A stretch of 64,000 nt of DNA from Endomicrobiales bacterium (GTDB taxonomy: Bacteria; Elusimicrobiota; Endomicrobiia; Endomicrobiales; JALOBY01): the NCBI GenBank assembly GCA_963796955.1, contig CAWCNJ010000004.1:160001-224000 (forward strand), given 5' to 3'. The notes under the pieces are model-generated. The model saw only the letters and a program-made list of their open reading frames with translations. It was not told the origin of the DNA and did no database searches. Of this stretch, positions 8,054 to 32,138 are shown one piece after another. How positions within the stretch are numbered: position 1 is the stretch's first letter; each line of letters starts with the position of its first letter. The position numbers were made by a program, and so were the translations under genes.

Positions 8054-8351
8054 TGAAGACCCGTTTGCGGGGCGCCAGAAGCGCCTCGCCTCGGATCTTA
8101 CAGCCGGACGTTTTGTACCGCCGGTTATGGCGGACGACTGCCCCGAACTGCAACCACATTTAACCATAAACGGTCCTGTCGTACCATGCGGTTTCTCTCA
8201 AATTTACTGACTTGGAGTTTTCTGCGAGAAATTTGTCGGATCTTCAAAAATAATTATATAGATACGAAAGCATGGCATAGTTTGACTTAAACTCAATTAT
8301 TGAATATAATTGCGAAAAGAATATAGTCTTCTGTTGATCAAGGGGGGGAGT

Positions 8352-8882
8352 GTGAAACTGGTGCCTTTATGTCTGGCGCTTTTTGTTTTACAAAGCACAG
8401 TAGCGGTTTCAGCAGAAAGAATTTTAGTAAATTCAGGCGGCAGTGGAAAATCCTCACCAAAAATACTTTCTGTAAGCTTAAGTCCCTTCGCCCATGGATA
8501 CCGCGCAGTTTCGAAGGTCTCCATGCAGTTGGGCGGCCCGAAAAGAGCCGGCAGTTTCCTTCCCGATGCCAGTTTTGTTCTCCGTGACGTGTACGTATTC
8601 CCCAATCCAGCCAAAACAGGAAAAATGCCGACCATTCATGTTGAGGTAGGCGTAGCCGATCAGGTGCAACTGCATATATATGATATCGCAGGTGATCTTG
8701 TTCATAGTGTCGTCTTGTCTGATGCACCGCAAATAATAGATGATGGAACAGGTAAGGATTATGCCTATGAATATAAATGGGAAGACAATATAGCAAGCGG
8801 CGTCTATTTGTGTGTGGTGCGCGCTCAAAAATCTGGCTATGGTGATATAAATAAAACCATTAAGCTGGCGGTGATACGATGA
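8352..8882 (+). CDS. Small secreted protein consisting mostly of a T9SS type A-like C-terminal sorting domain
   Basis: GTG start after a G-rich RBS (ORF track opens at 8310), hydrophobic signal peptide, VYVFPNP…IYDIAG…YAYEYKW…ASGVYL…KLAVIR. Confidence 0.7.
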   Translation: MKLVPLCLALFVLQSTVAVSAERILVNSGGSGKSSPKILSVSLSPFAHGYRAVSKVSMQLGGPKRAGSFLPDASFVLRDVYVFPNPAKTGKMPTIHVEVGVADQVQLHIYDIAGDLVHSVVLSDAPQIIDDGTGKDYAYEYKWEDNIASGVYLCVVRAQKSGYGDINKTIKLAVIR

Positions 8883-11637: not shown

Positions 11638-11641
11638 TGTT

Positions 11642-14152: not shown

Positions 14153-14176
14153 AGAAACGATTTCAAACTGAAGAAC

Positions 14177-14204
14177 TTGAAAAAAAAATGAATTCTGCTA
14201 TGAT
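14177..14204 (+). promoter_or_regulatory. Putative sigma70-type promoter for the riboswitch leader
   Basis: TTGAAA-16 nt-TATGAT with extended TGn before the -10, ~100 nt upstream of riboswitch 1. Confidence 0.4.
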
Positions 14205-14300: not shown

Positions 14301-14397
14301 CTTCGCATTGACGATAAAGGCAAACCAGATGAAAGTCTGGGGCGCAAAACCACGGGGCTTAAGATAGGGGCTATCTACGCCAGCCGGGTTACCGAAG
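14301..14397 (+). promoter_or_regulatory. c-di-GMP-I (GEMM) riboswitch aptamer 1
   Basis: AAAGGCAAAC-CAGAT-GAAA-GTCTG-GGGCGCAAAACC…CAGCCGGGTTACCGAA; P1 cttcg/cgaag; GAAA tetraloop on P2. Confidence 0.88.
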
Positions 14398-14527: not shown

Positions 14528-14706
14528 GCTCTTTCAAACGAAGTTCCGACAAAGGCAAACCCGGTGAAAGCCGGGGACGCAAAGCCGCCTCGCATGATGC
14601 GAGGGTTCTACCCGAAAGGCGGGTGGAATACGGGTCTAAAACGACAGTCCGAAGTCCGAAGTCCGGAGTCCGGAGCATCGTTAAGACGGCCGGGTTACCG
14701 AAGAGC
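14528..14706 (+). promoter_or_regulatory. c-di-GMP-I (GEMM) riboswitch aptamer 2, expanded by insertions
   Basis: AAAGGCAAACCCGGTGAAAGCCGGGGACGCAAAGCC…ACGGGTCTAAA…GACGGCCGGGTTACCGAA; flanking gctcttt/gaagagc pairing. Confidence 0.8.
14646..14673 (+). repeat. Heptamer tandem repeat (AGTCCGR)x4 in the P3 loop of riboswitch 2
   Basis: agtccga agtccga agtccgg agtccgg. Confidence 0.9.
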
Positions 14707-15285: not shown

Positions 15286-16923
15286 ATGAAAAAGAAACTG
15301 GCAACCACCAATCTCATAGCGATCTTCAAGTCTCTGGCCTGCTGCGCCAAAGCGCTTGTGGTGGTTTGCGTTGTTCTCTTCGGACTTCTGATTTCGGACT
15401 CTGGACTGGTGTATGCCGACAACACCGGCGGCCAGGCTGGCCAGTTCCTTGCCTGGGGCGCCGGAGCCCGTTCTCTGGGGATGGGCGCGGCCTTCTTCGC
15501 TGTAGCTAATGACGCATCGGCAACATACTGGAACCCCGCCGGGCTGCCGCAGCTGGACCGCAAGGAGCTTATGGCGCTGCACGTAACGTTGTTCGCCGAT
15601 ACGACCTACGATTTTATTTCTTACGTACATCCGACGCCGAACCTGGGCGTTTTCGGTATAAACCTGACCCGTTTATATTCCACGGGATTTGAAAAAGTTA
15701 ACATCACGTTTGATTCCACAAAGACCGACATCGTCGACATTCAAAGCATGGGAACATTTGATGATTCCCAGACCGCCCTTACCCTGGCGTACGGCAAGAA
15801 TATCCGCGACGGCATTGCGATCGGCGGTTCGTTCAAGTATATAACCCACACGCTGGATACCTCAACGAACGGATTCGCTACCTTCGACGTAACATCGCTG
15901 GTGACCGGCGTAACTTCGGCGCTGCCGGACATGAAGATGGCCTTCGGCATAAACAACATCATGAGCAGCGCTTTCGGCGACACGGAAGACAAACTGCCGA
16001 TGATACTTCGCGCAGGCATTTCGCAGCCGTTCCTGAAGAACAAGCTGCTGCTTGCGGCCGATATGAACAAAGGCATGAGCTCGGACATGGAGTGGCACCT
16101 GGGCACCGAATACTGGCTGCTGAATTTCGCAGCATTGCGCGTGGGCTTTAAAGGCCAGCAGGGCATCAGCGAAACAACGGCCGGATTCGGTCTGAGATAC
16201 CGCGATTACGGATTTGACTATTCTTTCGGGCTGACGGATCTGGGTATGTCGCAGCGGGTGAGCGGTTCCTGGCGCTTCGGCCTCTCCGTGAACCAGAACA
16301 AGGAAGCCCTGGTTCGCCGCTACATTCAGGAAGGCATGGAAGCATACACCAAGGGTAATTTCCTTCTTGCGCTGAATCGCATGGAAGCGGCTCTTGACAT
16401 AGACCCGTCCAACAAGGACGTCCAGAAAATGTCTAAACGTCTGCAGATGGTCATAGGCTTTATACCGTCCGCCAAAGCTGAGAACGAGGAAGAGACGGCT
16501 ATCCGCAAGGGTGTGGCCGCCTTCACCGAGAACGATGACAAGGGCGCCATAAACGCCTTGCGCTACGCCTATTACAAGAACCCCGCGAACCTGAAAGTGC
16601 TGCACCTGTTGAACGCTATGGAAAAAGAAATGGGTATCAGTATCACACCGGTATATAAGGAAGAGGCGGCCGGCTTTACCATGCTGGATCAGAAAATTTA
16701 TGATGCGCGCCAGGCTATTATTGAAGGTAAATATGATCAGGCGCTGATCAAGTGCCAGGATATAATGAACCTGGAGCCGGAAAACGTGACCGCACTTGAA
16801 ATGATGGGTTCTGCCTTCTTCATGATGGACCAGCCGGAAAAGGCGAAGCAGGTATGGATGAAAGTGCTTGAGATAGATCCGTCGAACAAGGTGGTACCTG
16901 AGTTCCTTAATCAGTTGAAGTAA
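15286..16923 (+). CDS. PorV/PorQ-family beta-barrel fused to C-terminal TPR domains
   Basis: GAGARSLGMG…ATYWNPAGL, DYSFGLTDLGMSQRVSGSWRF, then TPRs (ALDIDPSN, LEPENVTA, LEIDPSN). Confidence 0.82.
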   Translation: MKKKLATTNLIAIFKSLACCAKALVVVCVVLFGLLISDSGLVYADNTGGQAGQFLAWGAGARSLGMGAAFFAVANDASATYWNPAGLPQLDRKELMALHVTLFADTTYDFISYVHPTPNLGVFGINLTRLYSTGFEKVNITFDSTKTDIVDIQSMGTFDDSQTALTLAYGKNIRDGIAIGGSFKYITHTLDTSTNGFATFDVTSLVTGVTSALPDMKMAFGINNIMSSAFGDTEDKLPMILRAGISQPFLKNKLLLAADMNKGMSSDMEWHLGTEYWLLNFAALRVGFKGQQGISETTAGFGLRYRDYGFDYSFGLTDLGMSQRVSGSWRFGLSVNQNKEALVRRYIQEGMEAYTKGNFLLALNRMEAALDIDPSNKDVQKMSKRLQMVIGFIPSAKAENEEETAIRKGVAAFTENDDKGAINALRYAYYKNPANLKVLHLLNAMEKEMGISITPVYKEEAAGFTMLDQKIYDARQAIIEGKYDQALIKCQDIMNLEPENVTALEMMGSAFFMMDQPEKAKQVWMKVLEIDPSNKVVPEFLNQLK

Positions 16924-17073
16924 AATATAAGAGTATCTAAAAGGATCTGGTTTAAAAAGATGCAACAGCTTACAAAAGTTTTTAAACAAAACACGCTGAA
17001 AAGCCCGACACTCTGTGAAAAAACAGGGAGCCGGCTTTTCATTGCCTTATACCATATTCAACAGGAGCTCATT

Positions 17074-18843
17074 ATGAAATTGGTCGCGCGGGCGCTGTTC
17101 TTCTGTCTGCTGGTGCTGATGCCGGCCTTTGCCGCATCCACCGACAACAGCGGCGGGGGTAAGACCGCCGAGATTTCATTGCTTGAACAGGAATCAAAAT
17201 TTGAGAAAGACAAGTCGGACTATCTTCAGCAGAACGTGGTAGACAAGATACTGGGGCCCGGCAACGCCGTGGTGATCGTTGACGTGGAGCTGGGCATAGA
17301 GACCAAAGTTACGAACCAGGGCGCGAAAGAGAAAAAAACCGAGCGCAAGAAGCGCCTCGGTGAAGTGGAATATCTGCTGCCCGGCGTGCCGAACCCGAAG
17401 TCTGTCGCGAACGAATCCCAGCCGGGCGAATCGAAAGAAGAGACGGGAGCCGCGGAAGAAACGAAAACAGAATCAAAAACGGTCATAAAGAAGCTGCAGG
17501 TAACGGTGCTTTACGATGAAAAAATAGTCCAGGAGAAACTGGATACCGTTAAAGAAGCTATTATAAATTTCCTTAAGCTGGACCCGAAGCGCGGCGACAA
17601 GATAGAGTTCAAGAAAACAAAATTCACCAGCGGATTCTTCGAAGAAATGATGAAGCCGCTGATACTGATTCCTCTTATCATAGCGCTGCTGGTATTGTTC
17701 TTTCTGTTCGGGCCGTTGGCCAGTTTTTTCCGCAATTATGTGCGTACGCTTGCTGAACACGGCGGAACAGAAGTTACCGTCGACTCAAAATTTGAAGGTG
17801 ATAAGGGCGATGAGGAAGGAGCCGGTGGCGCAGGCGGCGGTGGCGTGGGAGAAGGCATTCTCGGCGAAGGCGACGGTAAGAAATATATACCTTTTGAATA
17901 TATAAACGATGACAATCTGAAAAGGCTTGTCTATCTGGTAAAGCGCGAGCCGCCTGAAACGATATCGCTGGTGGTCAGCTACCTGAAGCCCGAGTACGTT
18001 AAGGAACTGCTGAACGCCCTGACACCGGAACTGCAGGCGAAGGTGGCCACCGAAATGGCGACGATCCGCTCGCTGGACATGGATGATGTTCAGAAAGTGG
18101 ATAACTACATAAAGGAAAAGATAGAGTTCCTTATCGGCGGATTGTATCACCTGCTTAACGTGCTTGATAAAGTAGACCCGATCACGCAGTCCAATATATT
18201 CGAATACCTTAAGAATGAAAAACCGGACCTGTATGAAATGGTGCGGAAATTCGTGCTGATGTTCGACGATATACCCAATTTCCCGGACCAGGCGATGCAG
18301 GTGATAATCCGCGAGCTTAAGACCCAGGATATGGCGAAAGCACTGCGCAACGCCGAGCCCGAGATCATGAACAAATTCCTTGCCAATATGTCGACGAACG
18401 CTTCCGCCATTTTAAAAGAAGAAATGGAGTACGGCAGGCCCCTTACCGATGCCGAGGTTGAGGAAGGCCGCAAACAGCTGATGGATGTGGTAAAGAAGCT
18501 GGAGGCGGAGAACAAAATATTCCTGCGCGAAAAGCCGAAGTCCGGCGTGCTGGAAGGCCTGGAGGCCGGTAGCAACGATAACACCAGCTACAACGAATAT
18601 TATCAGGCAGGCGTGGGTTCTTATGAAGCGGGGGAGTACGACGCGGCCTTGCCTTACCTTGAATACTGCACACAGCTGGATCCTACACAGCCGGCGGGCT
18701 TTCAATATCTGGGCGCTGCATATTACGCGCTTGGGCGTACCGCCGAAGCGGTAGCAGCGTACGAAAAAGTGGTTGAGCTGGACCCGACCAACGAAGAACT
18801 AAAAAACTGGCTTGCTTCGCAGAGCGCCAATAAACTCGCATAA
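17074..18843 (+). CDS. FliF-C-like ring domain - TM - FliG middle and C-terminal domains - TPR fusion protein
   Basis: AGGAG RBS before ATG 17074. FliF-like VDKILGPGNAVVIVDVEL…IKKLQVTVL…LDPKRGDKI; TM helix; FliG-M PFEYI…EPPETISLVVSYL; FliG-C MFDDI…FLANMS…ILKEEM…VEEGRKQL; terminal TPRs. Confidence 0.8.
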   Translation: MKLVARALFFCLLVLMPAFAASTDNSGGGKTAEISLLEQESKFEKDKSDYLQQNVVDKILGPGNAVVIVDVELGIETKVTNQGAKEKKTERKKRLGEVEYLLPGVPNPKSVANESQPGESKEETGAAEETKTESKTVIKKLQVTVLYDEKIVQEKLDTVKEAIINFLKLDPKRGDKIEFKKTKFTSGFFEEMMKPLILIPLIIALLVLFFLFGPLASFFRNYVRTLAEHGGTEVTVDSKFEGDKGDEEGAGGAGGGGVGEGILGEGDGKKYIPFEYINDDNLKRLVYLVKREPPETISLVVSYLKPEYVKELLNALTPELQAKVATEMATIRSLDMDDVQKVDNYIKEKIEFLIGGLYHLLNVLDKVDPITQSNIFEYLKNEKPDLYEMVRKFVLMFDDIPNFPDQAMQVIIRELKTQDMAKALRNAEPEIMNKFLANMSTNASAILKEEMEYGRPLTDAEVEEGRKQLMDVVKKLEAENKIFLREKPKSGVLEGLEAGSNDNTSYNEYYQAGVGSYEAGEYDAALPYLEYCTQLDPTQPAGFQYLGAAYYALGRTAEAVAAYEKVVELDPTNEELKNWLASQSANKLA

Positions 18844-18866: not shown

Positions 18867-21800
18867 ATGGACATCTTTAAAAACAAAAAACCGGCTGAAG
18901 GGACCAACCCCCAGGTGGAGACGCCACGGATGGCAGAGCCCCAGCCGCCAACCGCGCAGCCGCCCGTTCCGGTGATTTCCGACAGCCAGGCTATGGCCGA
19001 GGCCAGGGCCCGCGCGCGTGAACAGTTGAACCTTATGGAGCAAAAGATCGCTCAGGAGCGCGAAGCCTGGTCGCATAAAGTCAAGGAAAAGGCCGAAGAG
19101 CAGGTTTCCTGCAACGCGAAGCTGGATATGCTGGTAAATCGTATCGCTCTTGAACGCGAGCGCCATGAAGCGGAGCTTGTCCTTATGCAGCAGAGCATCG
19201 ACAACGATCTTAAGTCTATCGACGCGGCGCTGGAAGCTGAGACCGCAAAATGGACGGAGCGCCTTTCGTTGAAGGATAAGGATATTGAAGATGCCAGGCA
19301 CCGCTCGGCCTTTGAAGAGACCCAGAAGAAAATAGAGTCTGAACAATCCCTGCGCGCTCTTAAAGTTGAAAAAGACGCGCTGGAACAAAAATTCAAAAGC
19401 CTGCAGCGCTCCATGCTGGAAGAACAAAATAAGTGGCTCGGCCAGATACGGCTGAAAGAAGAAGAGATCGTAAACCTTAAAACACAGATCGCGTTGCACG
19501 AAGAACAGATGAAAACCGACGAAGAAAAGAACACGTTGACCAGGAAGGAGTCGGAAGAAAACTGGCATACGCAGATAAAGGAGCTGGAGGAGCGCCTGGA
19601 TACCCAGCGCACCGACTGGACCCGCGTGCTCGCGAAAAAAGAAGAAGAGCTTTCAGCCATCAAAACAACGCTGGAGCAAAAACTTTCCACCCTTGCGATA
19701 GAGACCGAGCGCAAAGAGAACGATATCCGCCTTCTCAAGACCCGCATGGAAGAACGCATCAAGGCCGCCGAAGAATCCCTGAACGGAGAGAACGCGCGCT
19801 GGCAGCAGCTGCTGGGAGAACGCGATGAGGAGTTTAAAAAACTGCGCGTGGAGCTGATGCTGCGCGACAGTCAGGAAAAAACCGAACGCCAGAAAAAATA
19901 TCAGGACCTTAAAGACGCCGAATCCACCGCCTCCCGCCGGATCCGCGAGGCGAAACAAAAACTGGAAGATGAAAAACAGGTCTGGCAAAAGCGTATAAAC
20001 GATAAAGATGAAGAGCTGAAGAACCTCAAGATCCAGGCCGAGCTTAAGCTGAAAGATATCCAGGACGACCGGGCACTCCGGCAGCGCCGCGCTGAGGAAG
20101 AAAAATCAGCGCTCTCAGCCACGCTCGCAAGCTTGCAGGAAAAACTTGAAGAAGAACGCGTTACTCTGCAAAAAAGCGTTGCGGAAAAAGACGCGGAGAT
20201 AGAAACCTGCCAGCAGCAGTGGCAAAATACGCACGATGCGATGACCCGGGAAGGCGAAGCTCACATCAAAGAGCTGCGGGCGCAAAAAGACAGTTATGAA
20301 AGAGAAGTGCTTGCCCTGGAAGCCCAGCTGGCCCAGGAAAAACAGAAATGGAATACATTGATTCAGGAAAAGGACAAGCAGCTCTCTGTCGCGCGCGCCG
20401 AATATAACGCCAGAGAAGCGCTGGTGCACCAGGAACTGAATATACTGGAAGAACAGTTGCGCAAAGAGCAGCAGCCGCTGCTGCGACAGGTGCACGATAT
20501 TGAAGGAAAAGTAGGGGAATTGCAGCGCGCCGCCCAGATAGAGATATCGCACCGCGAGACCCAGAAAAAATCGTTACAGGATCAATTTCAACGCCGCGAA
20601 GAGAATCTGCGCCAGCGCCTGAATATTCAAATAGAGAAGATCAAGGATTCGGAAAATTCTCTCGCGGGCCGTGTTGCCGAAATAAAGGCGCATATGGACG
20701 CGCAGGGAAAAGAGGCGCAGTCAAGGCTTGAGGCTCTCGAAGAAGAAGGACGTCTGATCTCCGGACAGATGTCGCAGGAACATGAGCGGATAGAGGCTGA
20801 GAAAGCCAAGTTGTCTGAAAAATATTTGTCTGCCAAACTGGAACTTGAAGAGAGTATTAAAAAACTGGAAAACGAATACGACCTGATGCATACGACCTTG
20901 CAAGCTGAAATAGAGGAAAAGACCTCGGAACTTGCCGGCGAAGAGACCCGTCTGCACGCTGCCGAAGAAAGGATCGCAAAAGAAACAGCACAGCGCGAAA
21001 AAGAGTTCGCGGACCTTAAGGCCCGCGGCGACAGCCAGCTGGCGCAGCTGAGCGGCGAACTGGAAGCGCTTAAGAAACGCAATGACACCGATATACGTTC
21101 CCAGGTCGCCCAGCTGGAACTGCTGCGGCGCCAGGGCGCGGCGCGTGAGCAGGAGATGGCGGCGGATATAGAGGTCATCAGGCAGAACTCCGAGTCGGAA
21201 TTGAAACCCATGGCGGACCGCAAGGAGCAGCTGCGCTCACAGCTGGATTCCCTGCGCGCGCAGTCACAGACGAAACTGAAAGCCATCGACGGGCGCATTA
21301 GCGCGCTTCGGGCGCAGCATGACGCTATCGAAAAAGAATTCCTGGGCAGAAAGAACGTCGTCACGGAATCAATAAACGGTGTACAACGTGACAGTGAAGG
21401 AAAACTCCGCGCGCTTCAAAACGAACGCACGGAGCTGGAAGCTGCGTTTGCCCGCGAAATGTTGTTGAAGGAAGAAGAATTCTCAGCTCTCGAAAAAGAA
21501 GTGAACGGGCATGTGCAATTATTACAGCAAAAGAAGGATGCGGAGCGCGAAGAAGCCCGTATGCAGATGGAAAGCATGCGCGCCGACATAGACAAACTGT
21601 ATGAAGAAGTCTCGCGGGTTGAGACGGAATACCCGGAAATACTGGCCACGCGCCAGGAAGAACTGGTTTCTCTTGAAAAACAGGTCAATGAACGCGCGCA
21701 ATATTATCAGAAACAAACCCTTCAGGCGGAAAAATCGCTTGAGAATTATCAGCGTCGGGCCGAAAGCCGCATAGAGACCGTCCGGACGCAGCTGGACCAG

Positions 21801-23753
21801 ATGGTGGCGCGCCATAAGACAGAACTGTCCGTGCTGGAAGCGAAAATAACGGCGGTAAAGAAACAAACGGAAGAAAAAGAGAAGGCGCTCAACGACGAAC
21901 AGAACCGCGAAGGCCGCGTCTTCGTGGATGAAAAATACCGTCTGGAAAAACAGAAGGCCGAGCTGGAAGAAAAATTGAAAGATGTGACCTTCACTTCACG
22001 CGATCAGATAGGGAAAAAGGAAAAAGAGATCTCCGCCCTGCAGCTGGACCTGGCCGCCAAAGAACGCCTGTGGGAAGAGGCATGGCAGAAGAAGGAAATG
22101 GAGTTGGAAGCCGAGCGCGTCGTGCTGACCAGGGAGCAGGAAAGCCTTGAAGTCCGCCTGAAGAACGAGGAACAGATCTCTTCCAGCCGTCTGGCCCAGA
22201 AAGAGAACGAGATACATCAATATATGGCGCAGGCGGAGACACGGCTTAAGGCCCTTGAAGCCGACATCGAAGCTAAACGCGGCGCCTGGGACGAATCTAA
22301 AAAAGCGCTGGTAGAACAAATAACCGCCCATGAAGCGACGCTTGCGACACTGCAGCAGAATTGGCGCGAGAGCATGGCACGCAAGGACAAAGAACATACC
22401 GCGTTGAAGTCCAACCTCGAGTTCTGGGAACTGCGCACCAAGACCGAAGAAGAAAAACGCATGGCGGACTGGGAGAAGGAAAAATTCTCCCTGGAAGAGA
22501 AAGTAAAACACGTTACGGAGCAGATCTCTTCGCTGCAGTACGATTCAGCGGCCAAACTGGCCGAACGTGAAAAACAGCTTAACTCCGACAAAGAATCGGC
22601 ACGGCTGGCGGAGGAATCATCCGCCGCGCAGTGGCGTGAGACCGAGACGATGCTGAGCGGCCAGCGCGATTCCCTGATGCAGGAAGTTTCATCGTGGGAA
22701 AAGAAGATCAAGGACGAGACCGCGCAATATGAAAAGGAAAGCCGGGAGCTGGACAAGGATATTGAAAAACTGAAGCTGGAAAGCGCCCTGAAAGATGCCG
22801 GCATCCAGGCGAGTCGCCACAAACTTGAACGCGACTGGTTCAAGGCGCTGCGCCGGCTGGAAGGGCAGCTGGAGACCGTGAGCCGCCGTTACATCGAAGA
22901 AAAAGATTCCTGGACGGGTAAGATCCACCTGATCGAGGAAGAGATAAATACCTTCAAGGTGCGTCTTGGCATGCGCGAAGACCGCCGCCAGGCCGAGATC
23001 ACACGGCGCCAGGATGAACTGCGCAAGATAATCAACGAACTGGAGAACGAAGTGAAGGGTATGTACGCCAGATACAGCGACGCGGTGCTCGGCAAGAAGG
23101 AGTGGGTGACCAAGCGCAGCCAGCAGCTGGCAGAGCTTCGTGCCCAGCTGGCCGAGAAAGAAACCGTATGGCAGCGCGAGCAGTCGGCGAAAGAAGCTTC
23201 GCTGACCGGTGTCTTCGAGCAGTTCGGCTCCGATCTGTCGGACATGGAAAAGTCGCTGAAGGAAGAAACCGGTAAATTCGAAAAGCTGCTGGGACTGAAA
23301 CAGAAACAATTACAGAATATTATGGCGCAGATGGCCGGCAAGGAAGAGGAGCTGGTGCGCGAGCGTGAATTCAGTCAGAACACCTTAAGCAAATTGCATA
23401 CGAAAGCCGCGGAATTCAAGCAGCAGATAGAAGCTGAGTTGCGGGCTTTGTCGGCGGGCAAACAGGAACAGCGCTCCCATGTGCATATTTTTGACGAGGC
23501 GATGGAGCTGTACTCTCAACAGAACTTTGGCGCCGCCCTTGAACGGCTGGAAGCCCTGGTGAGCCAGCATCCGCGTTTCCCCGGCGCCCTGCAATATATG
23601 GCGCTGTGCAGCTTCGAACAGGGAAAACTTGCCGAGGCGGTGCAGTTCGCCGAACGGGCCTTCGAGCTCGACGGCAGCAATGAGTCTCTCAAGGAATGGA
23701 TACTACAACTCAAACAAGCGGCACGTTCACATATATCAGATTCTAATAATTAA
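18867..23753 (+). CDS. Giant coiled-coil protein with 61-residue periodicity and C-terminal TPR
   Basis: E/K/Q/R/L-rich ORF of ~1630 aa, Pro-rich N-terminus, Trp codons every 183 nt, terminal TPR (AFELDGSNESLKEW). Confidence 0.85.
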   Translation: MDIFKNKKPAEGTNPQVETPRMAEPQPPTAQPPVPVISDSQAMAEARARAREQLNLMEQKIAQEREAWSHKVKEKAEEQVSCNAKLDMLVNRIALERERHEAELVLMQQSIDNDLKSIDAALEAETAKWTERLSLKDKDIEDARHRSAFEETQKKIESEQSLRALKVEKDALEQKFKSLQRSMLEEQNKWLGQIRLKEEEIVNLKTQIALHEEQMKTDEEKNTLTRKESEENWHTQIKELEERLDTQRTDWTRVLAKKEEELSAIKTTLEQKLSTLAIETERKENDIRLLKTRMEERIKAAEESLNGENARWQQLLGERDEEFKKLRVELMLRDSQEKTERQKKYQDLKDAESTASRRIREAKQKLEDEKQVWQKRINDKDEELKNLKIQAELKLKDIQDDRALRQRRAEEEKSALSATLASLQEKLEEERVTLQKSVAEKDAEIETCQQQWQNTHDAMTREGEAHIKELRAQKDSYEREVLALEAQLAQEKQKWNTLIQEKDKQLSVARAEYNAREALVHQELNILEEQLRKEQQPLLRQVHDIEGKVGELQRAAQIEISHRETQKKSLQDQFQRREENLRQRLNIQIEKIKDSENSLAGRVAEIKAHMDAQGKEAQSRLEALEEEGRLISGQMSQEHERIEAEKAKLSEKYLSAKLELEESIKKLENEYDLMHTTLQAEIEEKTSELAGEETRLHAAEERIAKETAQREKEFADLKARGDSQLAQLSGELEALKKRNDTDIRSQVAQLELLRRQGAAREQEMAADIEVIRQNSESELKPMADRKEQLRSQLDSLRAQSQTKLKAIDGRISALRAQHDAIEKEFLGRKNVVTESINGVQRDSEGKLRALQNERTELEAAFAREMLLKEEEFSALEKEVNGHVQLLQQKKDAEREEARMQMESMRADIDKLYEEVSRVETEYPEILATRQEELVSLEKQVNERAQYYQKQTLQAEKSLENYQRRAESRIETVRTQLDQMVARHKTELSVLEAKITAVKKQTEEKEKALNDEQNREGRVFVDEKYRLEKQKAELEEKLKDVTFTSRDQIGKKEKEISALQLDLAAKERLWEEAWQKKEMELEAERVVLTREQESLEVRLKNEEQISSSRLAQKENEIHQYMAQAETRLKALEADIEAKRGAWDESKKALVEQITAHEATLATLQQNWRESMARKDKEHTALKSNLEFWELRTKTEEEKRMADWEKEKFSLEEKVKHVTEQISSLQYDSAAKLAEREKQLNSDKESARLAEESSAAQWRETETMLSGQRDSLMQEVSSWEKKIKDETAQYEKESRELDKDIEKLKLESALKDAGIQASRHKLERDWFKALRRLEGQLETVSRRYIEEKDSWTGKIHLIEEEINTFKVRLGMREDRRQAEITRRQDELRKIINELENEVKGMYARYSDAVLGKKEWVTKRSQQLAELRAQLAEKETVWQREQSAKEASLTGVFEQFGSDLSDMEKSLKEETGKFEKLLGLKQKQLQNIMAQMAGKEEELVREREFSQNTLSKLHTKAAEFKQQIEAELRALSAGKQEQRSHVHIFDEAMELYSQQNFGAALERLEALVSQHPRFPGALQYMALCSFEQGKLAEAVQFAERAFELDGSNESLKEWILQLKQAARSHISDSNN

Positions 23754-23775: not shown

Positions 23776-26700
23776 ATGGCCGACGAAAAGTTACCAAAAG
23801 TTCCACCGTTACCGCCCGCAAGACCAGCCGGGAGCGGACCAACCCCGCCGAAGCCGCCTATGCCGGGGGCCGGTGCCAACCCGCCCGCGGTGAAACCGGC
23901 GTTGCCGGGTAAGCCCGCGATAAATCCGGCGGCGGCGCCGCGCCCTATGCCCGGGCAGGCGGCTCGTCCTCCTGTGAACACCCAAACCCAGCGAAACGTA
24001 ACGCCGGCCCAGCCGTCCACCGGCTATTCTGAGGTTGACGATGCCCGCAACGCGCTGGAAGGCCAGATAAACGAACTGCAAAAACAACTGCAGTCCGAAC
24101 GCGAGAAGCTGCTGCTGCAGACCGTGCGCGCAAAGAAGAAGAAGCGATGTCGGCCAAAGTTGAAGAATCGATCAAGGATATTCAGGAACGTGTCCGCCGG
24201 GAAAAACGCGATCAGGAATTGCAGGAATCGCTGGCGAAGGCCGAAGCGTACAATAAAGAGATGGAGGCGCGCCTTGCCGCCGAGCGCCAGACCTGGGTGG
24301 AGACCCTTAAAACGCAGATCGGCCAGAAAGATTCGCAGGAAAAAGAAGTGGAATACCAGTTCGAGCTGCGCATGAAGGAGCTGGAACGCCGCTGGCATGA
24401 GGAAAAACTCGCCTGGTCGCAGGCCATCAAAGCGAAAGACGAAGAGGTGATACGTCTGCACCGTGAAAAAGAGAGCGCGGTAGGCGAAGAGCGCGCAGCT
24501 TCCGAGAAACGGGTAACCGAACTTACCCGGGAACGCGAGTCCCTGCAGCGTGAGCTGATCGATGTACGCGATGTACGCCAGGAAGAGCGCAGCTCGCTTC
24601 TGGAAAAACTTGAGGGCCGCGATAAGGAGTTCATGGGCCTGAAGGCCCAGCAGGCGATGCTGGTGACCCAGGTGCGCGAAGCTAAAGACAAACAGGACCA
24701 GATGCGCCAGCTGCTGGAAAAATTCCGCGCTGAAAAAGAGAACCTGCATTCGCTGCTGGAAAATAAGGATAAAGAGTTCTACCTGTTCAAAACGCAGTTC
24801 GCCCTCTACCAGACCCGCTCAAAATCGGAGCAGGAAAAGCTGCTTAAGGAACTGGTATTGTTCAAAGATCAGATGGGCAAGGACGCGCAGCAATATTCCA
24901 GCGTCCTGCGCGCCAAAGAAGAAGAGATGAACCTGCTGCGTCGCGCTAACGAAGGCAGGGAAAGCGAGATCCGTAACCAGTTGGAAAAGAAAGAACAGGA
25001 AGTCGCCTCAACGGCGGCGCAATACGAGGCTCGCATAAAAACGCGCGAAGCCGAACTGCGTTACGAACTGGAACGCAAGGAAACGGAACTTAAAGGTCAG
25101 ATAGTCCATATTGAAGAACAGGTCAGAGCGCGCGTCGGTGAAATTGAGAACCTGAAAGAACGTCATACCGAGCAGCTGCGCGCCAGGGACGGCGATATAA
25201 AGAGCGCGGCGGAAAAACTGGCGGCTATGCAGGTGGAAGTTGCCGTTGCCAGACAAAATACACAGTCCGCCGAACAGCGTATGGCGCTTGCACAATCAGA
25301 GGCTGCCAGGCTCAAGGAGATCATAGAAGAAAAAGAAGTTGACGCGGCTTCCGCACAGGCACAGTTCACCGCCCGCCTTGAGCAGGCTGCTTCCGAAGTG
25401 CGTCAGGCGACCGAACGCGAACAGGCGCTGCGCCTTGAGCTGGCTGTCGCCCGGCAGAACATGCAGGTTTTTGAAACCCGCATAGCAGCGGCGCAGTCGG
25501 AAGTTGCCGGGCTTAAAGAAGTGATCGCGAGAAAAGACGCTGAAGCTTCTGAGCGCCAATCGGAGTTCAGCTCACGCCTGGAGCAGGCGGCATCGCAGCT
25601 GCGCTCCGTGCAGGAACGGGAGCAGACGCTGAAAGTAGAACTGGCTTCTGCGGCCGCCGTGCGCCATGATCTTGAAAAAGCGGTGGAGAGAGAACACGAG
25701 GAAGCGGAGCGCCAAAAAGCTCAGATCGTTGAAAATGAAAATCTTTACCGGAACGGCTTATCCCAGAAAGATACGGTCATCAGCGCCAAAGAACTTGAAC
25801 TTGCCGGCATGCGTGAAACAATAGCGGCTCTTCGTATGGAACTGGTTAAAAACGAAAGTATGCAGCGCGAGCTTACCGTGGCGAATGACCGTCTTGACGT
25901 GGCATTATCCCAGGCAAACGCGGCCTTAAGCGATCGCGATATGCGCCTCGCCAGGGCCGGCGACAGGGAGAAGGGCCTTGCTGATACTATCAACGAACAT
26001 GTCAATGAATTGTCCGCTGTCCGCGCAAGCCTTGCCGCGGTTGAAAATGAAGCGGCCGCGTTGCGCGGCGCGATAACCGAACGGGACGGCCGGATAAAGG
26101 AAGGCGACCGCAAGGAAGACGAACTGCGCGCTCAACTCCTTTCGAAAGAAGGTGAGATCAACACCCTGCGCGAGACGATGCAGCAGCGCGAGGCGATGCT
26201 GGTGACGGTGCAGACCCAGGCCGAACGCCGCGAGAACGACATGAAGATCGCCTTCGCCCAGCGTGATGCCGAACTGAACAACCGCTGCGCGGCCCTTGAG
26301 GCGACGCTGGTTGAGAAAGACCGTTTCCTCGCCGGTTCCGCCGAAAAAGAACGCGCCTTATCGAACGCCCTGGCGAAAGAAGAGGAAAAAGTTTCCGAGC
26401 AGCTGGAACACGTGAGGGAACTTGTTTCAAGAGAGAACGAGCTCAAGATGTCTCTTAACCAGAAAGAGAACGCGTATGCCGCTGAACGCGCCGCGATAGA
26501 ATCGCGCATAGCGGAGCGCGACCGCCAGCTTACCCAGCAGGCGCAGGCGTTTGAGGCTGAGCGCAGAAAATACGAAGAAGCCGTCTCACGGGCGGAACGT
26601 TCATTGCAGGAAGCTTCAGCGGCCGCTCAGCTGCAGCTTGCCTCCCGTGAAAAAGAGATCGAACGCCTTAACAGCGCGGTAGCGGCCGCCCAGCATGCGG

Positions 26701-27848
26701 TCAATGCCGCCAAACAGGAAAACGCCCTGCATGAGCAGGAATTGCAGCTGGGCGCAAAACAGCGCGAAGCCGCTCTGCTTATTGATATAACCAACGCCCG
26801 GGAAAAAGCTAAGAAGGCCGAGCAGGTCCTCAGCGATTCTCAGCGTCAGCACCAGCATCTGCTGCTGTCACAGGAACAGAACGCGATGCAGCGCGAGGCG
26901 GCGTTGAGCGCGGAAAAGAACGCGGCAAAAGAGCTTCTGGCCGGCCTGAAAGCCGATAACGATACCCTGCGGCGCGAAGGCGAAAAAATGCTCGCCGAAG
27001 TGAACGCCAGTCAGCATCGCATGAACGAGGTAAAGGAATTATACGAGCGGCAGCTGAGAGCCAAGGAAGAAGATCTGGCCCAAATTAAGGCGAACAGGCT
27101 GGCGTTCGAAGACTCTGTGCGCCACCAGATCAATGAAGAATACCGCCGGCATCTGGAAGGGGTGCAGAGGGAAAAGCAGGACGGCGAACGCGCCTTCATG
27201 AACCAGATACAGACCCTGAGGGACACCATGCGTACCGACCTGCTGCACGTGCAGGAAACCATGACCCGCGACCACTCGCAGCTGGAACGCCAGCTGCAGG
27301 AAAAAGAGGCCCGGCTGCACGAACTCCAGCAGGCTTTAAAAGACGAAGCATTACGCGAGCAGGAACAGAAAACCGCCCTGGACAAGAATGTTGAGAGGGT
27401 GCGGGAAGAATACAAGGCATTGCTTGCAGAAGAAACAAGAAAACATGAAATGGAGCGCGATGTAATAGCGCGCAATACCAAGCATATAGACGATGAGTGT
27501 TCTTCGCTGCGCCAGAGAGCAGAGGGGCTAGCCTTTCAATTAAAACAGGCGAATGATACCCTGCAGGGGAAAAATAAGGAAGTCATGACCCTTCAGGAAA
27601 ATCTTGACACCCTGACCATTCAAAACAGGAAGCAGGCACAGTATTCTTCTAACGATGCCGCCGCGAAAACGGCTAAATTCGGCCCGGAAGACACCGTTAT
27701 ACTTGAGCCGCATGTTCCCCAGCCGCAGATCCAGCAGCCGGCGCCAGCAAAGCAGCGTAAACCGCTGATAGGCCGTATCTGGGATAATTTGAACGAACCC
27801 GTCATAGAGATCGGCGGAGATAACATGAAGAAGAAAGACCATGAATAA
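23776..27848 (+). CDS. Large coiled-coil protein with Pro-rich N-terminus (~1357 aa once the frameshift at ~24132 is corrected)
   Basis: GGAGG RBS before 23776. One missing A in gcaaagaa joins ORF 23776.. to ORF 24147..27848 (…VRAKEEEAMSAKVEE…). Confidence 0.8.
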
Positions 27849-28509
27849 CGAACTGCATAAGCTTAGAGAAAAATGGGAAGCGTCTTTCAGCGCTCTGGAA
27901 TGCACGGCGCGCGGTGCCGGCAGCAGCGATGCTTTCCGCAACAATGAATTCGCATTGCTGCGCGAGGAGGTGGGCGCGCTCAAGGCTGAACTGGTGGAAG
28001 CCAGGCGTGAGCGGGAAGCGTCCCGGTACGCGGACACCCGCGCGAGTGAGCTGGAAAACGCCATACGCCTGCAAACGCTGGACAACGAGAATAACAGGCG
28101 TGCTCTGGAAGAACTGTGCCGGAGCCGCGTTCAGGAAGAAAACCTTTCCGTCCAGGCGGCGGAAAAGGCGGCGAAAACGATCGCCGGTGAAAAAGAACGT
28201 GCCGAAAGCCTTGCCGAAGAATTGTTCTTTGCACGTGCCGAAAATGAGGCGTTACGGCAGCGTGTCGCGGCCGCCGATGCAGCCGCGTGCGATGCCCGCG
28301 CCGCAGCCGTGGAACGCGAGAAGTCATTTTCCGGCCTGCTTGAGCGGCTTAACCGCGCCGAATCAGAGTGTGAGCGCATCTCACAGAATTTTATCCAATA
28401 CCGGATGGAAATAATCACCCGCGGCAACAAAGAAGAACGCCATCGCCGCCATAGCGAGCCGGTCCTGGGTGAGAAGATCATATCCTGGCTGTCCAACAAA
28501 GAGCGTTAA
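27841..28509 (+). CDS. Coiled-coil hypothetical protein
   Basis: 222-aa heptad-rich ORF overlapping the upstream stop. Confidence 0.7.
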   Translation: MNNELHKLREKWEASFSALECTARGAGSSDAFRNNEFALLREEVGALKAELVEARREREASRYADTRASELENAIRLQTLDNENNRRALEELCRSRVQEENLSVQAAEKAAKTIAGEKERAESLAEELFFARAENEALRQRVAAADAAACDARAAAVEREKSFSGLLERLNRAESECERISQNFIQYRMEIITRGNKEERHRRHSEPVLGEKIISWLSNKER

Positions 28510-28529: not shown

Positions 28530-31500
28530 ATGGGTCGATCGAGTAACTATTTATTCATTGCCCTTATCTTGTTGCTGGCCGGCTTTGTCGTTGCGTGGGC
28601 TGCGCCCGCTCCCGTCGGCGACCTTGCCGCTTCGTCGGCAGGCTATCGCCATATTACCCTGACCTGGAGCACGCCGTACGATGCGGCGGCTTCCACCACG
28701 CCTGCGTATTACGATCTGCGCTGCTCGACCACGACCCCCATTATAACGGCCGCGGACTGGAATAACTGCCCCTCTTCTCCGGTCTACCCCTATAATATTG
28801 TTTTCACAACGCAGGGTGTTTCAGCCGGCAGCCCTGTCTCGTTTTCGGTGACCGGGCTTACGAACGGCCGCACCTATTTCTTCGCCATCAAGTCTTCCAC
28901 CGATAATATTTCCTGGTCGGCGCTTGATACGTCGAGCCCTGAACCCTTTAATACTCCCTTCAATACGGTACCCTACACCCTTCAATCATACGATTTCCCG
29001 GCTGCCCGTTCTGAGGTCTATACTTCAACCCCCACGTTGACGTGGCACAGCGATACGGTAACGCCGGGTTCCGACGACAGCGTCTGGGGTGATTCCATAG
29101 TTACCTATACCGTTGAATTATCAACAGATGTTTCATTTGGTTTCCATTCATCCGAAGATGTTTCCATACCTTCTTATACCACATATCCGCTTGCTGAAAA
29201 TACCACGTATTACTGGCGTGTGCGACCGCACGACAGCGAGGGGCTTCAATCTGCCGGTTTCCTTGATCAGACGGACCGCTGGTTCATGGTCAATGCGAAA
29301 AAAGACGCGCCAACTCCCTTCAACCTGCTATTGCCGGCGAACCTGGATATCATCAACAACAATACGCCGTCCCTGCAATGGTCGGCCTCTACCTGCGCCG
29401 ATCCCATGCCGGAAGGCATTGTCTCGTATACCGTCCAGTACAGCACCAGCCCTACCTTCAATATTGTGTGCACCACCACGGTCGCGGCCCTGGCGGGATC
29501 TCCCTACGCGGTGCCGTCGGCCTTGATCGAGAATGCGCACTATTTCTGGCGGGTATACGCGGTCTCCGGCTCCGGTGTTTCAACGATGTCATCTTCCACC
29601 GGCACCTTTTGGGTCAATGCCATACATACGGGGCCCGGCATATTCGCGCCTGCCGGACCGCCAAACGCGTCGATCGTGCGGCTTTCCACGCCAACTATTT
29701 CCTGGAGCCCTTCGGCCGACCCGGATCCCGGCTCAGCGGTCGTTTATAACGTCATATATTCTTCCACCGATATTACGTTGAGCATGGATTATCACGTCAT
29801 CTCAGGCATTGGCACTACCTGGTATGTTCTGCCGCCGCTGCAGGACGGTGTTGTTTACTGGTGGCAGGTGCAGTCTGATGACGGGGCCGGCGGCCAGTAT
29901 CAAAGCACAGAATGGTCATTTTCCGTGCATGCGGTTAATGCGCCACCAACGCCGTTCGATCTGCTCAGCGCTTCAGGAACGGTCGCGACACTTAAACCTG
30001 CATTTTCCTGGCAGGCCGCCACTGACCCCGAGGGCGACGCCTTCTCCTATACAGTGCAATACACGACGACTGATTTCTCCGCGGCGGTTTCCTCAGCCGG
30101 GTTGCATGTCGCTTCTTTTACGCCGGCCGTTAATCTTACGGAAAATGCACAATATCTGTGGCGTGTGATGTCCGTAGACAGTTTCGGCGCGCAGCGTATG
30201 TCGAACCAGACCTGGCCGTTGGCTATAAATGCCAACCCCGAGCCGCCGCTGCCGTTCTCGCTTGTTTCACCGGCTGATCAGGCCCAGATAAGTTATCTTG
30301 CTCCTACGCTTATCTGGCAGGCGACAACCGATCCGGACCCGGGCGATTCTATCGCCGGTTATACCGTCAGATATTCGACTGCTCCCGATCTGAGCAATGC
30401 GGTTTCCGTAGCAGGAATTTCTGTCACCTCCTATACCGTCACGCCGCCGCTCACCGCGAACACCACCTATTTCTGGAGCGTGCGTGCGGTTGCCACGCAG
30501 AGCGGCCAGACGGACGCAGCGGCGATCCGCAGTTTTTTCGCGGTGAACCAGCCGCCGCTGGCCTTCTCGCTGCTCGCTCCTTCGGGCATCATTGCCACAC
30601 GCACGCCCACGCTTAACTGGCAGGCCGCGCCGGATCCGGAAGGCGATGCCGTAACCTACACGGTCCGCTACGCAACGAATGCGGCATTTGCCGGCGCCGT
30701 GTCGGTGTCCGGTATAACGAACAATTATTACACGACCCCCGCGCTGATAGAAGACGCCAGCTATTACTGGAAAGTTGATGCCGTCGATGTATGGGGGCAT
30801 GTGCGTAACTCAACGAACGTTCTGCCGATCGCCATTAACAGCATTGATTCACCCCCGGCGGTATTCGTCTTGATCTCCCCACCTGACGGCACGGTATGCG
30901 GGGTACGCCCTGTATTTTCCTGGCAGGCCTCATCGGATACCGATCCGGGCGACAGAGTTTCCTATGAGTTATGGTACTCCACTTCGCCGGTCTTTGCCTT
31001 TAAAACGGTGGTAGCTTCTCTTCCGGGAACCTCGTACACAACCGTCCAAAGCCTTATACCCGGCACGACCGTATACTGGAAAGTCAGCGCCCTGGACAAC
31101 GCCGGCAACCGTACGATGACAACCGCCTGGCGGACGTACATCTCTCAGGCAGAGCCGCCGGAGACACCCGCAAATTTTACCGCCATGTCCTCGGCTGATG
31201 GTCGCACGATCACGCTTACCTGGCAGGCGCCGGGTGCGAACGCCGATGGCTCAGCGTTGACACCTCTTGATGGTTTCTGTATTTACCGCGCCTACGATCT
31301 TAACGGCGTGCTGGCCTCAGTAACGCCTCTTATTATCCCTGCTGGCATGACCTCGTATACCGAGCAAATAGCCGCCGGCCAGACCGTGTATTATCAAGTG
31401 AGCGCAAGGAATATCCTTGGCGGTGAAAGCACCCGGTCCCGCGCTGTTTCAGCCGGCGCGCAGGGAGAACTTTTAAGCTACACGAATGATTGCGATCTGA

Positions 31501-32138
31501 TACTTTCGTGCCCGCCAAATGTGGTCCCCTCGTCCTATTCAGTCACGGTAAGCCGCGACGGCGCACTGGAATTCGGGAACGTTTTGCGTCATTATTCCGT
31601 GCACGTCGCTGCCGGCGGCGTCGAGCTGAAAAAATATGTGTTTTCAAAGCCGCTTACCATCTCGCTTAAGACGGACACCGCGATCCAGTCGCCGGCCGCC
31701 CATGCCCCGGTGCAGGCGCAACTCACCACGGGTATTTTCTGGCATAACGGCGTTGAATGGATCTACCTTGGCGGTGAAAACGCTTCCGGCGATATCAGCG
31801 TCAGGGCAAGTTCCGCGGGGGAATATGAATTGCGCGCCGTATCACGTTCATCTGAATTCCACGTTCTCTCTCACTGGCCGGCGATAATTACGCCGAACGG
31901 GGACGCCATCAACGATGAGTTCAACATCACATTTGAAAACCCCATGTCGGACGCGGTCTCCGGCGAGATTTACGACCTCCGGGGCGCGCGTATCGCGGAA
32001 ATGTCGGCCAAAACCGATACCTGGTATATTTGGAACGGCAGCGATGACAACGCCCTCAGGGTTGTCCCGGGAATATATATCTATCAGCTTAAAGTAGGCG
32101 AAAAACGTTACAACGGCACGGTGGTGGTGGCAAGGTGA
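28530..32138 (+). CDS. Secreted multi-Fn3/Ig-repeat adhesin with gliding-motility-associated (type B, CHU_C-like) C-terminal domain
   Basis: Signal peptide; about seven ~100-aa repeats P.F.L..P…TP.L.W…DPD/EGD…Y.WRV; C-terminus ITPNGDAINDEF…IYDLRG…WNG…PGIYIY…GTVVVAR. Confidence 0.82.
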   Translation: MGRSSNYLFIALILLLAGFVVAWAAPAPVGDLAASSAGYRHITLTWSTPYDAAASTTPAYYDLRCSTTTPIITAADWNNCPSSPVYPYNIVFTTQGVSAGSPVSFSVTGLTNGRTYFFAIKSSTDNISWSALDTSSPEPFNTPFNTVPYTLQSYDFPAARSEVYTSTPTLTWHSDTVTPGSDDSVWGDSIVTYTVELSTDVSFGFHSSEDVSIPSYTTYPLAENTTYYWRVRPHDSEGLQSAGFLDQTDRWFMVNAKKDAPTPFNLLLPANLDIINNNTPSLQWSASTCADPMPEGIVSYTVQYSTSPTFNIVCTTTVAALAGSPYAVPSALIENAHYFWRVYAVSGSGVSTMSSSTGTFWVNAIHTGPGIFAPAGPPNASIVRLSTPTISWSPSADPDPGSAVVYNVIYSSTDITLSMDYHVISGIGTTWYVLPPLQDGVVYWWQVQSDDGAGGQYQSTEWSFSVHAVNAPPTPFDLLSASGTVATLKPAFSWQAATDPEGDAFSYTVQYTTTDFSAAVSSAGLHVASFTPAVNLTENAQYLWRVMSVDSFGAQRMSNQTWPLAINANPEPPLPFSLVSPADQAQISYLAPTLIWQATTDPDPGDSIAGYTVRYSTAPDLSNAVSVAGISVTSYTVTPPLTANTTYFWSVRAVATQSGQTDAAAIRSFFAVNQPPLAFSLLAPSGIIATRTPTLNWQAAPDPEGDAVTYTVRYATNAAFAGAVSVSGITNNYYTTPALIEDASYYWKVDAVDVWGHVRNSTNVLPIAINSIDSPPAVFVLISPPDGTVCGVRPVFSWQASSDTDPGDRVSYELWYSTSPVFAFKTVVASLPGTSYTTVQSLIPGTTVYWKVSALDNAGNRTMTTAWRTYISQAEPPETPANFTAMSSADGRTITLTWQAPGANADGSALTPLDGFCIYRAYDLNGVLASVTPLIIPAGMTSYTEQIAAGQTVYYQVSARNILGGESTRSRAVSAGAQGELLSYTNDCDLILSCPPNVVPSSYSVTVSRDGALEFGNVLRHYSVHVAAGGVELKKYVFSKPLTISLKTDTAIQSPAAHAPVQAQLTTGIFWHNGVEWIYLGGENASGDISVRASSAGEYELRAVSRSSEFHVLSHWPAIITPNGDAINDEFNITFENPMSDAVSGEIYDLRGARIAEMSAKTDTWYIWNGSDDNALRVVPGIYIYQLKVGEKRYNGTVVVAR

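Follow-up and report, generated by a model that had tools for sequence, protein, structure and literature searches.

What is maintained by a coiled-coil protein that repeats itself every 61 residues, with neither a gap nor a slip, over nearly 1,500 residues? A long coiled coil can usually absorb insertions and deletions; the gene considered here, designated CC1, encodes one that appears not to. It lies on the forward strand at 18867..23753 of a 64,000-nucleotide stretch (hereafter the window) from an Endomicrobiales bacterium of the phylum Elusimicrobiota (GenBank assembly GCA_963796955.1, contig CAWCNJ010000004.1, positions 160,001 to 224,000). The 61-residue periodicity of CC1 is real, and the length and phase of its rod of ~1,500 residues are kept across the phylum, changing only in quanta of 244 residues (~36 nm). 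The reading favored here, with a probability of about one half, is that CC1 may serve as a fixed-length spacer or periodic scaffold (a molecular ruler) that docks by its ends onto a flagellum-free, FliF-FliG rotor-like envelope machine.

The open reading frame (ORF) of CC1 opens at TTG 18852 (1,633 residues). Since homologs begin with M-x-F-F-K-K-K, translation almost certainly starts at ATG 18867 (MDIFKNKK) and not at TTG 18852, giving a protein of 1,628 residues rich in E, K, Q and L. The N-terminal motif MDIFKNKK, with the consensus MxFFKKK in two of the homolog alignments used below (A1 and A2), is followed by a proline-rich linker (residues 1-47, 18867..19007), a 24 x 61-residue repeat array predicted to be a continuous alpha-helix (residues 48-1511, 19008..23399) and a C-terminal tetratricopeptide repeat (TPR) domain (23490..23669; Pfam TPR_19 and TPR_16). 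The TPR_19 profile scores 26.6 bits against a cutoff of 25 over residues 1553-1605 (in the 1,633-residue numbering), and TPR_16 scores 32.1 bits, slightly below its Pfam cutoff of 32.7. Apart from TPR, CC1 matches no Pfam or NCBIfam family, and public annotation of its homologs reads 'tetratricopeptide repeat protein' and nothing more. The domain is paralogous to the TPR of the FliF-FliG fusion encoded upstream (29% identity, E = 6.4e-9). In a hydrophobicity check of the protein, neither a transmembrane nor a signal segment was found, and CC1 is therefore cytoplasmic.

An earlier note on this DNA had proposed a giant coiled coil with an exact, indel-free 61-residue (183-nt) period over at least 22 repeats in 19068..22913, marked by tryptophan codons in one register and by a leucine codon at 20166 and a tyrosine codon at 22728 in the same phase. 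This interval lies wholly within the single ORF, and all 11 marker codons share one reading frame: nine are TGG, the one at 20166 is CTG (Leu) and the one at 22728 is TAT (Tyr), and each is followed by a context of the x3-[LI]-x2-[KR]-[DE]-x-[ED] type. Nine of the 22 tryptophans of CC1 fall in one residue class modulo 61 (Bonferroni-corrected binomial P ~2e-9). When the whole protein was autocorrelated with BLOSUM62, the lags 183, 61, 122, 244, 366 and 305 stood highest (0.39-0.21), with the next-best lag, 208, at only 0.06. Six multiples of 61 also lead the autocorrelation of the N-terminal third. The middle repeats had been named as the place where the period could prove false. The tryptophan marker is absent from this third (residues 541-1100), and the lags 61, 183, 366, 244 and 305 are its top five, with 122 in tenth place. 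Over the last 400 residues, long lags are noisy, and 366, 183, 122 and 61 rank 6th, 7th, 10th and 12th.

The register of individual repeats was examined by a leave-one-out test, in which each 61-residue segment was scored against the remaining segments at 61 shifts. Of the 24 repeats, 23 scored highest at shift 0 and one, repeat 23, had shift 0 in second place; the segment that would be the 25th fails as a repeat, being where the TPR region starts. By this test, the array consists of 24 gap-free repeats, or 1,464 residues, which goes beyond the 22 first proposed. The claim that the underlying DNA repeats are diverged also holds, as nucleotide identity between repeats is 35.8% and Tandem Repeats Finder detected no tandem array of 183 nt in the CC1 DNA. 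Amino-acid identity between repeats is 15.8% in register versus 8.0% out of register. No repeat is left in the DNA, and it is therefore in the protein alone that the period persists.

To describe the unit, a profile was compiled from the rod columns (residues 48-1500 and their equivalents) of A1, a MAFFT alignment of five full-length orthologs at 30-36% identity, and then from 120 repeats of five genomes. Columns 3, 7, 10, 14, 21 (Trp), 25, 32, 35, 39, 46 and 57 are strongly hydrophobic, and columns 17, 28, 42/43, 50, 53 and 60/61 more weakly so. The proposed decomposition of 61 residues into four heptads and three hendecads agrees with this pattern, which has 17 core steps per unit, including three 4-4 steps, arranged as 18+18+25. 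Fourier analysis of hydrophobicity yields one sharp peak at 3.59 residues (61/17 = 3.588) with a power of 21.5, the power of the neighboring coiled coil CC2 being at most 2.8. CC1 thus has the constant hydrophobic seam between 3.5 and 3.67 residues that is expected of a non-heptad coiled coil. The combined fraction of glycine and proline is at most 0.10 in every unit column. Beyond the core, the unit repeats a surface signature consisting of W21, K28, E/D29, E31, K/R36, K/R42-E43 and E49 (0.57-2.2 bits each). Charge zones of the myosin type were considered and rejected, the smoothed net charge being near zero around the unit.

Structure prediction is consistent with these features. AlphaFold2 models repeats 1-4 as a single, continuous, loop-free helix (residues 2-243 of 244) with a mean predicted local distance difference test score (pLDDT) of 89.9. 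A longer model running from repeat 4, column 1 to repeat 23, column 19 (r4c1-r23c19, a notation used throughout; 1,178 residues, 11-row alignment) is mostly helical at low confidence, with a pLDDT of 62.6 and a predicted template modeling score (pTM) of 0.28, and its helix breaks include the prolines r9c2 and r15c22. A homodimer prediction with two copies of repeats 1-4 (30-row alignment, no controls) scored 0.01 and 0.00 where the mark was 0.42, and is counted neither for nor against self-association. The a-like core positions contain both I and L, and the d-like ones are L-rich, which weakly suggests that the helix may pair into a parallel dimer. An alpha-helix rises by ~0.148 nm per residue. 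At that rise, the unit measures ~9.06 nm, a 244-residue block ~36 nm and the 24-repeat array ~217 nm if fully extended. This supports the structural part of the earlier proposal, namely a giant coiled-coil-type helix that is nearly straight and repeats every 61 residues (17 turns); the proposed dimensions of ~1,340 residues and 200 nm are revised to 1,464 residues and, at full extension, ~217 nm.

Full-length homologs of CC1 are present in 7 other genomes of the same order, among 41 related genomes searched. A word-indexed search of 5.8 billion proteins returned 9 matches at E <=1e-20, and the first 1,200 residues, used as query in an exhaustive HMMER search of 1.84 billion representatives, returned 38 proteins at E <=1e-3; the HMMER matches inspected all belong to the same Elusimicrobiota-type family. 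By profile search, the gene occurs in 28 of 401 Elusimicrobiota genomes; of these genomes, 293 have a completeness of 90% or more, and 20 of them carry it. Altogether, 35 unique family members were found, in Elusimicrobiota only, with identity down to ~20%, and the 61-residue period is present in every one. A pattern search of genome contigs confirmed 2 loci out of 600 matches, degenerate patterns being common in coiled coils. One homolog (G003, contig C3, locus L016) is split into frames of 1,563/1,573 and 310 residues, carries several in-frame stops in its last part and represents either a pseudogene or a poor assembly. In addition, TPR-only matches were observed in five small genomes of genus g11, and the ORFs concerned in G028 and G034 (566-601 residues) have no coiled-coil neighbor.

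Conservation of the register was assessed in A1, in a wider alignment that includes two sequences at 21% identity (A2) and in eleven phylum-wide sequences at 20-35% identity to CC1, cut in register (A5). In three overlapping sets of homologs, the six multiples of 61 take the first six places in the autocorrelation of 7 of 7, 7 of 7 and 16 of 17 sequences, and the 17th has five of the six. A hidden Markov model of the repeat gave 719 hits in the 35 members, of which 663 follow a single register within each protein; the off-register hits are mostly at shifts of 18, 25, 36 and 43, which are internal pseudo-periods of the unit. The A5 sequences align with MAFFT free of gaps across 1,178 residues, and 30 four-repeat blocks align without a gap in 244 columns.

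The lengths of homologs bear directly on the earlier suggestion that they should differ by multiples of 61: every length change of one repeat or more is a block of exactly 244 residues (4 x 61). The rod in A1 contains only two gap blocks, each of exactly 244 residues, and among twelve close homologs the rod indels amount to two 244-residue blocks and one single-residue gap, located in P0012 near the C-terminal end of the rod. No 7- or 11-residue indels occur in repeats 1-20 of these twelve. G106, from another family of the same class, has one additional block, again of exactly 244 residues, that all four relatives compared lack, and no other rod indel. Complete frames fall into length classes of ~1,533-1,663, ~1,851-1,874 and ~2,098-2,111 residues, corresponding to 24, 28 and 32 repeats. 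Within the N-terminal region, ordinary indels among homologs are confined to residues 1-47. In A2, MAFFT placed small compensating gaps of 3, 4 and 7 residues in the two sequences at 21% identity. Length in the CC1 family is thus conserved or quantized independently of sequence, as would be expected of a ruler.

A natural control is provided by the adjacent gene CC2 (23776..27848, forward strand), an ordinary heptad coiled coil similar to CC1 in size and composition. Among six CC2 orthologs from the same genomes, at 30-34% identity, there are 80 distinct internal gap blocks of arbitrary length, and freedom from indels, as seen in CC1, is therefore not something that the coiled coils of these organisms share in general. 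CC2 itself has no 61-residue autocorrelation peak, its top lags being 14, 67 and 7. When the whole genome was filtered for long coiled coils, only CC1 and CC2 passed, and only CC1 was 61-periodic. As deposited, CC2 consists of two frames, 23776-24375 and 24147-27848, which meet at ~24131-24146 inside an (AAG)4 run, with the proline-rich N-terminal part MADEKLPKVPPLPP in one frame; the split could be an assembly error of one base or a genuine frameshift. CC2 proteins open with a proline-rich segment of the PPPLPG type. Near their C-terminus, ~10-20 residues from the end, CC2 and its homologs (loci L013-L018) carry the motif W..LNEP[VI]IEI (27780-27848 in the window), a candidate ligand of a cytoplasmic TPR domain.

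The rod is not uniform along its length. A proline at r9c2 (residue 537, codon 20475..20477) is invariant in A1 and A2 and is found in 22 of the 26 members tabulated, counting r10c2 in P0004 and G043, where the start of the first repeat was assigned one repeat early. Exactly 244 residues further on lies the proline r13c2 (residue 781, codon 21207..21209). A third, r15c22 (residue 923, codon 21633..21635), is invariant in A1, A2 and A5 and adjoins a helix break in the low-confidence long model. These codons are all on the forward strand. The 24-repeat forms have prolines at r9c2, r13c2, r15c22 and often r23c19, the 28-repeat forms at r9c2, r13c2, r17c2, r19c22 and r27c19, and the 32-repeat form at r9c2, r21c2, r23c22 and r31c19. 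From these fixed addresses, it follows that the inserted 244-residue blocks are proline-delimited units of the central region. Runs of 26-34% identity between repeats four apart give these blocks the look of old duplications. A 244-residue super-repeat within CC1 itself was rejected, as identity at distance four (0.16) is no higher than at other distances. Conservation of non-core positions among orthologs is 0.56-0.65 in repeats 1-6 and 0.45-0.65 in repeats 17-22, against 0.34-0.44 in repeats 9-14; the rod therefore has two conserved ends and a center that keeps its length but not its sequence.

The genomic context suggests where such a rod might act. Only 23 nt upstream of CC1 lies the gene for a membrane-bound FliF_C-FliG_M-FliG_C-TPR fusion of 627 residues (16960..18843, forward strand), with FliG_C at 95.6 bits, FliG_M at 49.9, YscJ_FliF_C at 25.0 and TPR matches, and with E = 7.6e-34 against Thermotoga maritima FliG (3ajc). 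From its N-terminus, the fusion comprises a hydrophobic segment (residues 35-61), the C-terminal ring domain of FliF, a second hydrophobic stretch (~226-261), the middle and C-terminal domains of FliG, and TPR. Upstream of it, a PorV/PorQ-family outer-membrane barrel with a C-terminal TPR (545 residues; 15286..16923, forward strand) is the first gene of a four-gene core. This PorV-TPR protein matches NCBIfam NF033709 with 125 bits (cutoff 90), has Pfam UPF0164 and TPR matches and an N-terminal hydrophobic segment, and its UPF0164 domain is better described as PorV/PorQ family. The order PorV-TPR, FliF-FliG-TPR, CC1, CC2 recurs in five other genomes, and an ORF with FliG_C adjoins CC1 in four of five distant genomes. 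The genome of CC1 (81% complete) encodes three FliF-FliG fusions, and neither FlhA nor flagellin was found in that 81%.

On the ruler reading, CC1 would form a cytoplasmic coiled-coil rod of 24 phase-locked 61-residue units, ~217 nm long when extended and presenting a repeat every ~9.06 nm. One conserved end would comprise the N-terminal FFKKK motif and repeats 1-6, the other repeats 17-22 and the C-terminal TPR, and through the TPR and the N-terminal region the rod would dock onto a ring of FliF-FliG-TPR subunits. There it may set a distance or present sites at 9-nm intervals, and in lineages with 28 or 32 repeats its reach would grow by 36-nm steps. The strongest argument for a spacer or ruler, the ruler being one of the functions put forward earlier beside a track and a staggered filament with 9-nm sites, is that length is conserved while the central repeats drift.

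Several observations weigh against this reading. The function proposed for CC1 is deduced from evolutionary pattern and gene order. In 9 of the 35 members, mostly distant ones, the register is shifted by -1, -3 or -4, only in the last 2-4 repeats, and the single-residue gap of P0012 lies in the rod of a close homolog. Length changes that all come in fours could reflect the mode of duplication and not a functional requirement. The conserved prolines r9c2, r13c2, r15c22 and r23c19 may kink or joint the rod, and 217 nm is therefore an upper bound. With regard to the machine, stator genes are missing from the operon of CC1, the one MotA that neighbors a FliF-FliG paralog is on a different contig, and the fifth distant genome, G083, has CC1 but no FliG_C match on the same contig; it carries a FliG of canonical length (335 residues) elsewhere.

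Among the alternatives, the one that survives best, though it is still unlikely, is that CC1 self-assembles into a cytoskeletal, intermediate-filament-like structure, with rods packed laterally at a stagger of one or several 61-residue periods into striated filaments or sheets, so that the period would be conserved to hold neighboring rods in register and not to measure distance. A surface signature recurring every 61 residues exceeds the needs of a hydrophobic core, and FilP, a bacterial coiled-coil protein that forms striated filaments (PMC6599971), offers a precedent. Head-to-tail joining might conceivably be allowed by the conserved N-terminal peptide and the C-terminal TPR. However, long-range charge zones of the myosin type are lacking, and the unequal conservation of repeats among orthologs indicates that they are not equivalent, whereas simple staggered packing favors equivalence. 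The gene is, moreover, tied to a membrane ring protein instead of standing alone.

Less probable still is a rod that folds back, or bends at prolines acting as joints, to form a bundle (antiparallel or segmented) similar to the arms of SMC and Rad50 or to spectrin-like segments, which would be about half as long or shorter and whose period would keep two arms in register. The prolines do bound arms of near-equal length (r1c1-r9c2, 489 residues, and r15c22-r23c19, 485 residues) around a variable center, the conserved zones r1-r6 and r17-r22 sit at roughly mirrored positions, the 18+18+25 core spacing reads the same in both directions and length changes only by even numbers of repeats. As for predicted structure, the long model breaks at two prolines but is of low confidence (see above), and the high-confidence model of four repeats is one straight helix. 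In the 28- and 32-repeat forms, no proline is found at the new midpoint, and CC1 has no hinge, ATPase head or match to the SMC family.

A more active role is doubtful on present evidence: CC1 could be a toothed rack, track or drive shaft of a non-flagellar rotary motor, its 9.06-nm teeth, represented by the W-x3-L-x2-K-E-x-E-I sites, meshing with the TPR ring of the rotor so that rotation would move or wind the 217-nm rod; alternatively, the rod might set the spacing between motors that carry giant adhesins of the type-IX style. These ideas are compatible with all observations, and their basis is synteny. Seventeen teeth at 9.06 nm would give a circle of ~49 nm, the size of a C-ring, which is arithmetic and not evidence. 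Least likely is a frozen accident, in which an ancient 61- or 244-residue unit was duplicated, long coiled coils resisted indels and nothing is measured: repeat arrays do arise by tandem duplication, lag 244 is strongest in several lineages and the inserted blocks resemble old duplicates, but CC2, in the same genomes and at the same divergence, accumulated its arbitrary gap blocks, even the 7- or 11-residue indels that would preserve a coiled coil are missing from repeats 1-20 of the twelve close homologs, and the register persists at ~20% ortholog identity across the phylum in repeats that have decayed to 15.8% identity.

Comparison with known systems helps to place the spacer or ruler proposal. 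Scy and FilP of Streptomyces are, like CC1, very long cytoplasmic coiled coils that combine heptads and hendecads at close to 3.6 residues per turn. The Scy repeat unit, reportedly described by Walshaw and colleagues in 2010, has 51 residues. CC1 differs from both in its 61-residue unit, its C-terminal TPR, its FliF-FliG operon and its occurrence in Elusimicrobiota, and it shares no sequence-family relation that would place it with them. We know of no report of a phylum-wide indel-free register or a quantized length for Scy or FilP. None of the repeat terms sought was found in the text of the Scy paper PMC3718342. In eukaryotes, PMC5909927, citing Oda et al. 2014, describes CCDC39/CCDC40 (FAP59/FAP172) as a coiled-coil ruler that sets the 96-nm axonemal repeat. 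CC1 displays the evolutionary signature expected of such a ruler, with length conserved and sequence free, and is not homologous to it; CCDC39/40 acts on microtubule doublets and was proven by length engineering, whereas CC1 is known from its sequence.

Nebulin, which is not a coiled coil, runs along the actin thin filament and is built of 35-residue modules in super-repeats of seven. CC1 resembles it in having a hierarchy of repeat and super-repeat (61 and 244 residues) and in changing length by whole super-repeats; it differs in that the 244-residue level is seen only as proline-delimited blocks and insertion units, with a weak similarity signal in some lineages. The arms of SMC and Rad50 are likewise long coiled coils of conserved arm length, and CC1 is distinguished from them by sequence-periodic repeats and by the lack, in Pfam and NCBIfam searches, of an ATPase head, hinge or SMC match, so that it is not counted among SMC proteins. 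NCBIfam SMC models do match CC2 and a 694-residue ORF downstream, weakly. As for the flagellar motor core (the FliF MS-ring, FliG and MotAB), homology is shared by the upstream FliF_C-FliG_M-FliG_C fusion, whereas CC1 itself matches no known flagellar component in Pfam or NCBIfam and has no counterpart in described flagellar motors. Neither Elusimicrobia nor TPR is mentioned in the MotAB evolution paper PMC12505986, and no description of the CC1 family or of a 61-residue coiled-coil repeat was found in the literature searched (open-access papers and preprints only). CC1 is best called a new variant of long-period coiled-coil rod, for which the evidence of selected length and phase is unusually strong.

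If the ruler or scaffold reading is true, a cellular structure scaling in 36-nm steps would be expected in cryo-electron tomography, and the three naturally calibrated versions of 24, 28 and 32 units make the idea directly testable. CC1 appears to be a previously undescribed part of the flagellum-free FliF-FliG/MotAB machines of Elusimicrobiota, and it bears on how parts of the flagellar rotor come to serve other purposes. Protein designers could take the 61-residue (18+18+25) unit as a natural template for rods that are straight and of defined register, with addresses spaced 9 nm apart.

The FliF-FliG fusions show further features. In the torque-helix stretch of the fusion next to CC1 (residues ~470-490), nmstnasailkeemey aligns with nmskraaallkdeley of 3ajc; the acidic pair is kept (EE for DE) and the basic pair K-R has become T-N. 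The stator-facing FliG residues were assigned through the Escherichia coli numbering quoted in PMC12505986. The two other FliF_C-FliG_M-FliG_C paralogs of this genome, at C6:179152-182814 (L021) and C7:3869-8991 (L022), lack TPR. Each is preceded by a periplasmic protein with PD40 and fn3 domains, and a signal-bearing protein with a TPR tail lies near both, the one on C7 scoring as PorV. The copy on C6 is followed by MotA and two MotB/OmpA genes.

Downstream of CC1, the genes continue on the same (forward) strand with gaps of at most 22 nt or with overlaps. The end of CC2 overlaps an ORF of 222 residues with no family assignment and no transmembrane segment (27841..28509). It is followed by an fn3/Ig surface protein (28530..32138; fn3 at 88.5 bits) with a CHU_C C-terminal domain of the type IX secretion type-B kind (37 bits), a PorP/SprF-like membrane protein with LysM (32135..33709; PorP_SprF at 29.1 bits and LysM at 27 bits) and, as the last same-strand gene, a cytoplasmic protein of 694 residues that is partly coiled coil, with weak SMC-arm-like matches and no transmembrane segment (33724..35808). 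The region 28530-33709 thus links the rotor-like genes to the handling of surface proteins in the type-IX style. At the other end of the operon, two cyclic di-GMP (c-di-GMP)-I riboswitch aptamers (Rfam RF01051, gathering score 35) lie in tandem on the forward strand ~600-900 nt upstream of the PorV-TPR gene, the first at 14309..14396 with 84 bits and the second at 14544..14702 with 45.8 bits, which suggests that the whole operon may respond to c-di-GMP.

Further upstream, the region 8000-14200 has a low GC content of 0.41-0.46, compared with 0.50-0.57 elsewhere in the window, and contains a second UPF0164/PorV-like ORF, a PMT_2 glycosyltransferase with TPR and a protein of 836 residues with a phage tail collar domain. 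On the same contig, seven giant ORFs of 965-3,542 residues span C4:114211-166238, the last of them being the ORF at 8-6241 of the window, which encodes 2,077 residues without a Pfam match. Rich in glycine and proline and poor in E, K, R and Q, these seven probably represent giant surface proteins.

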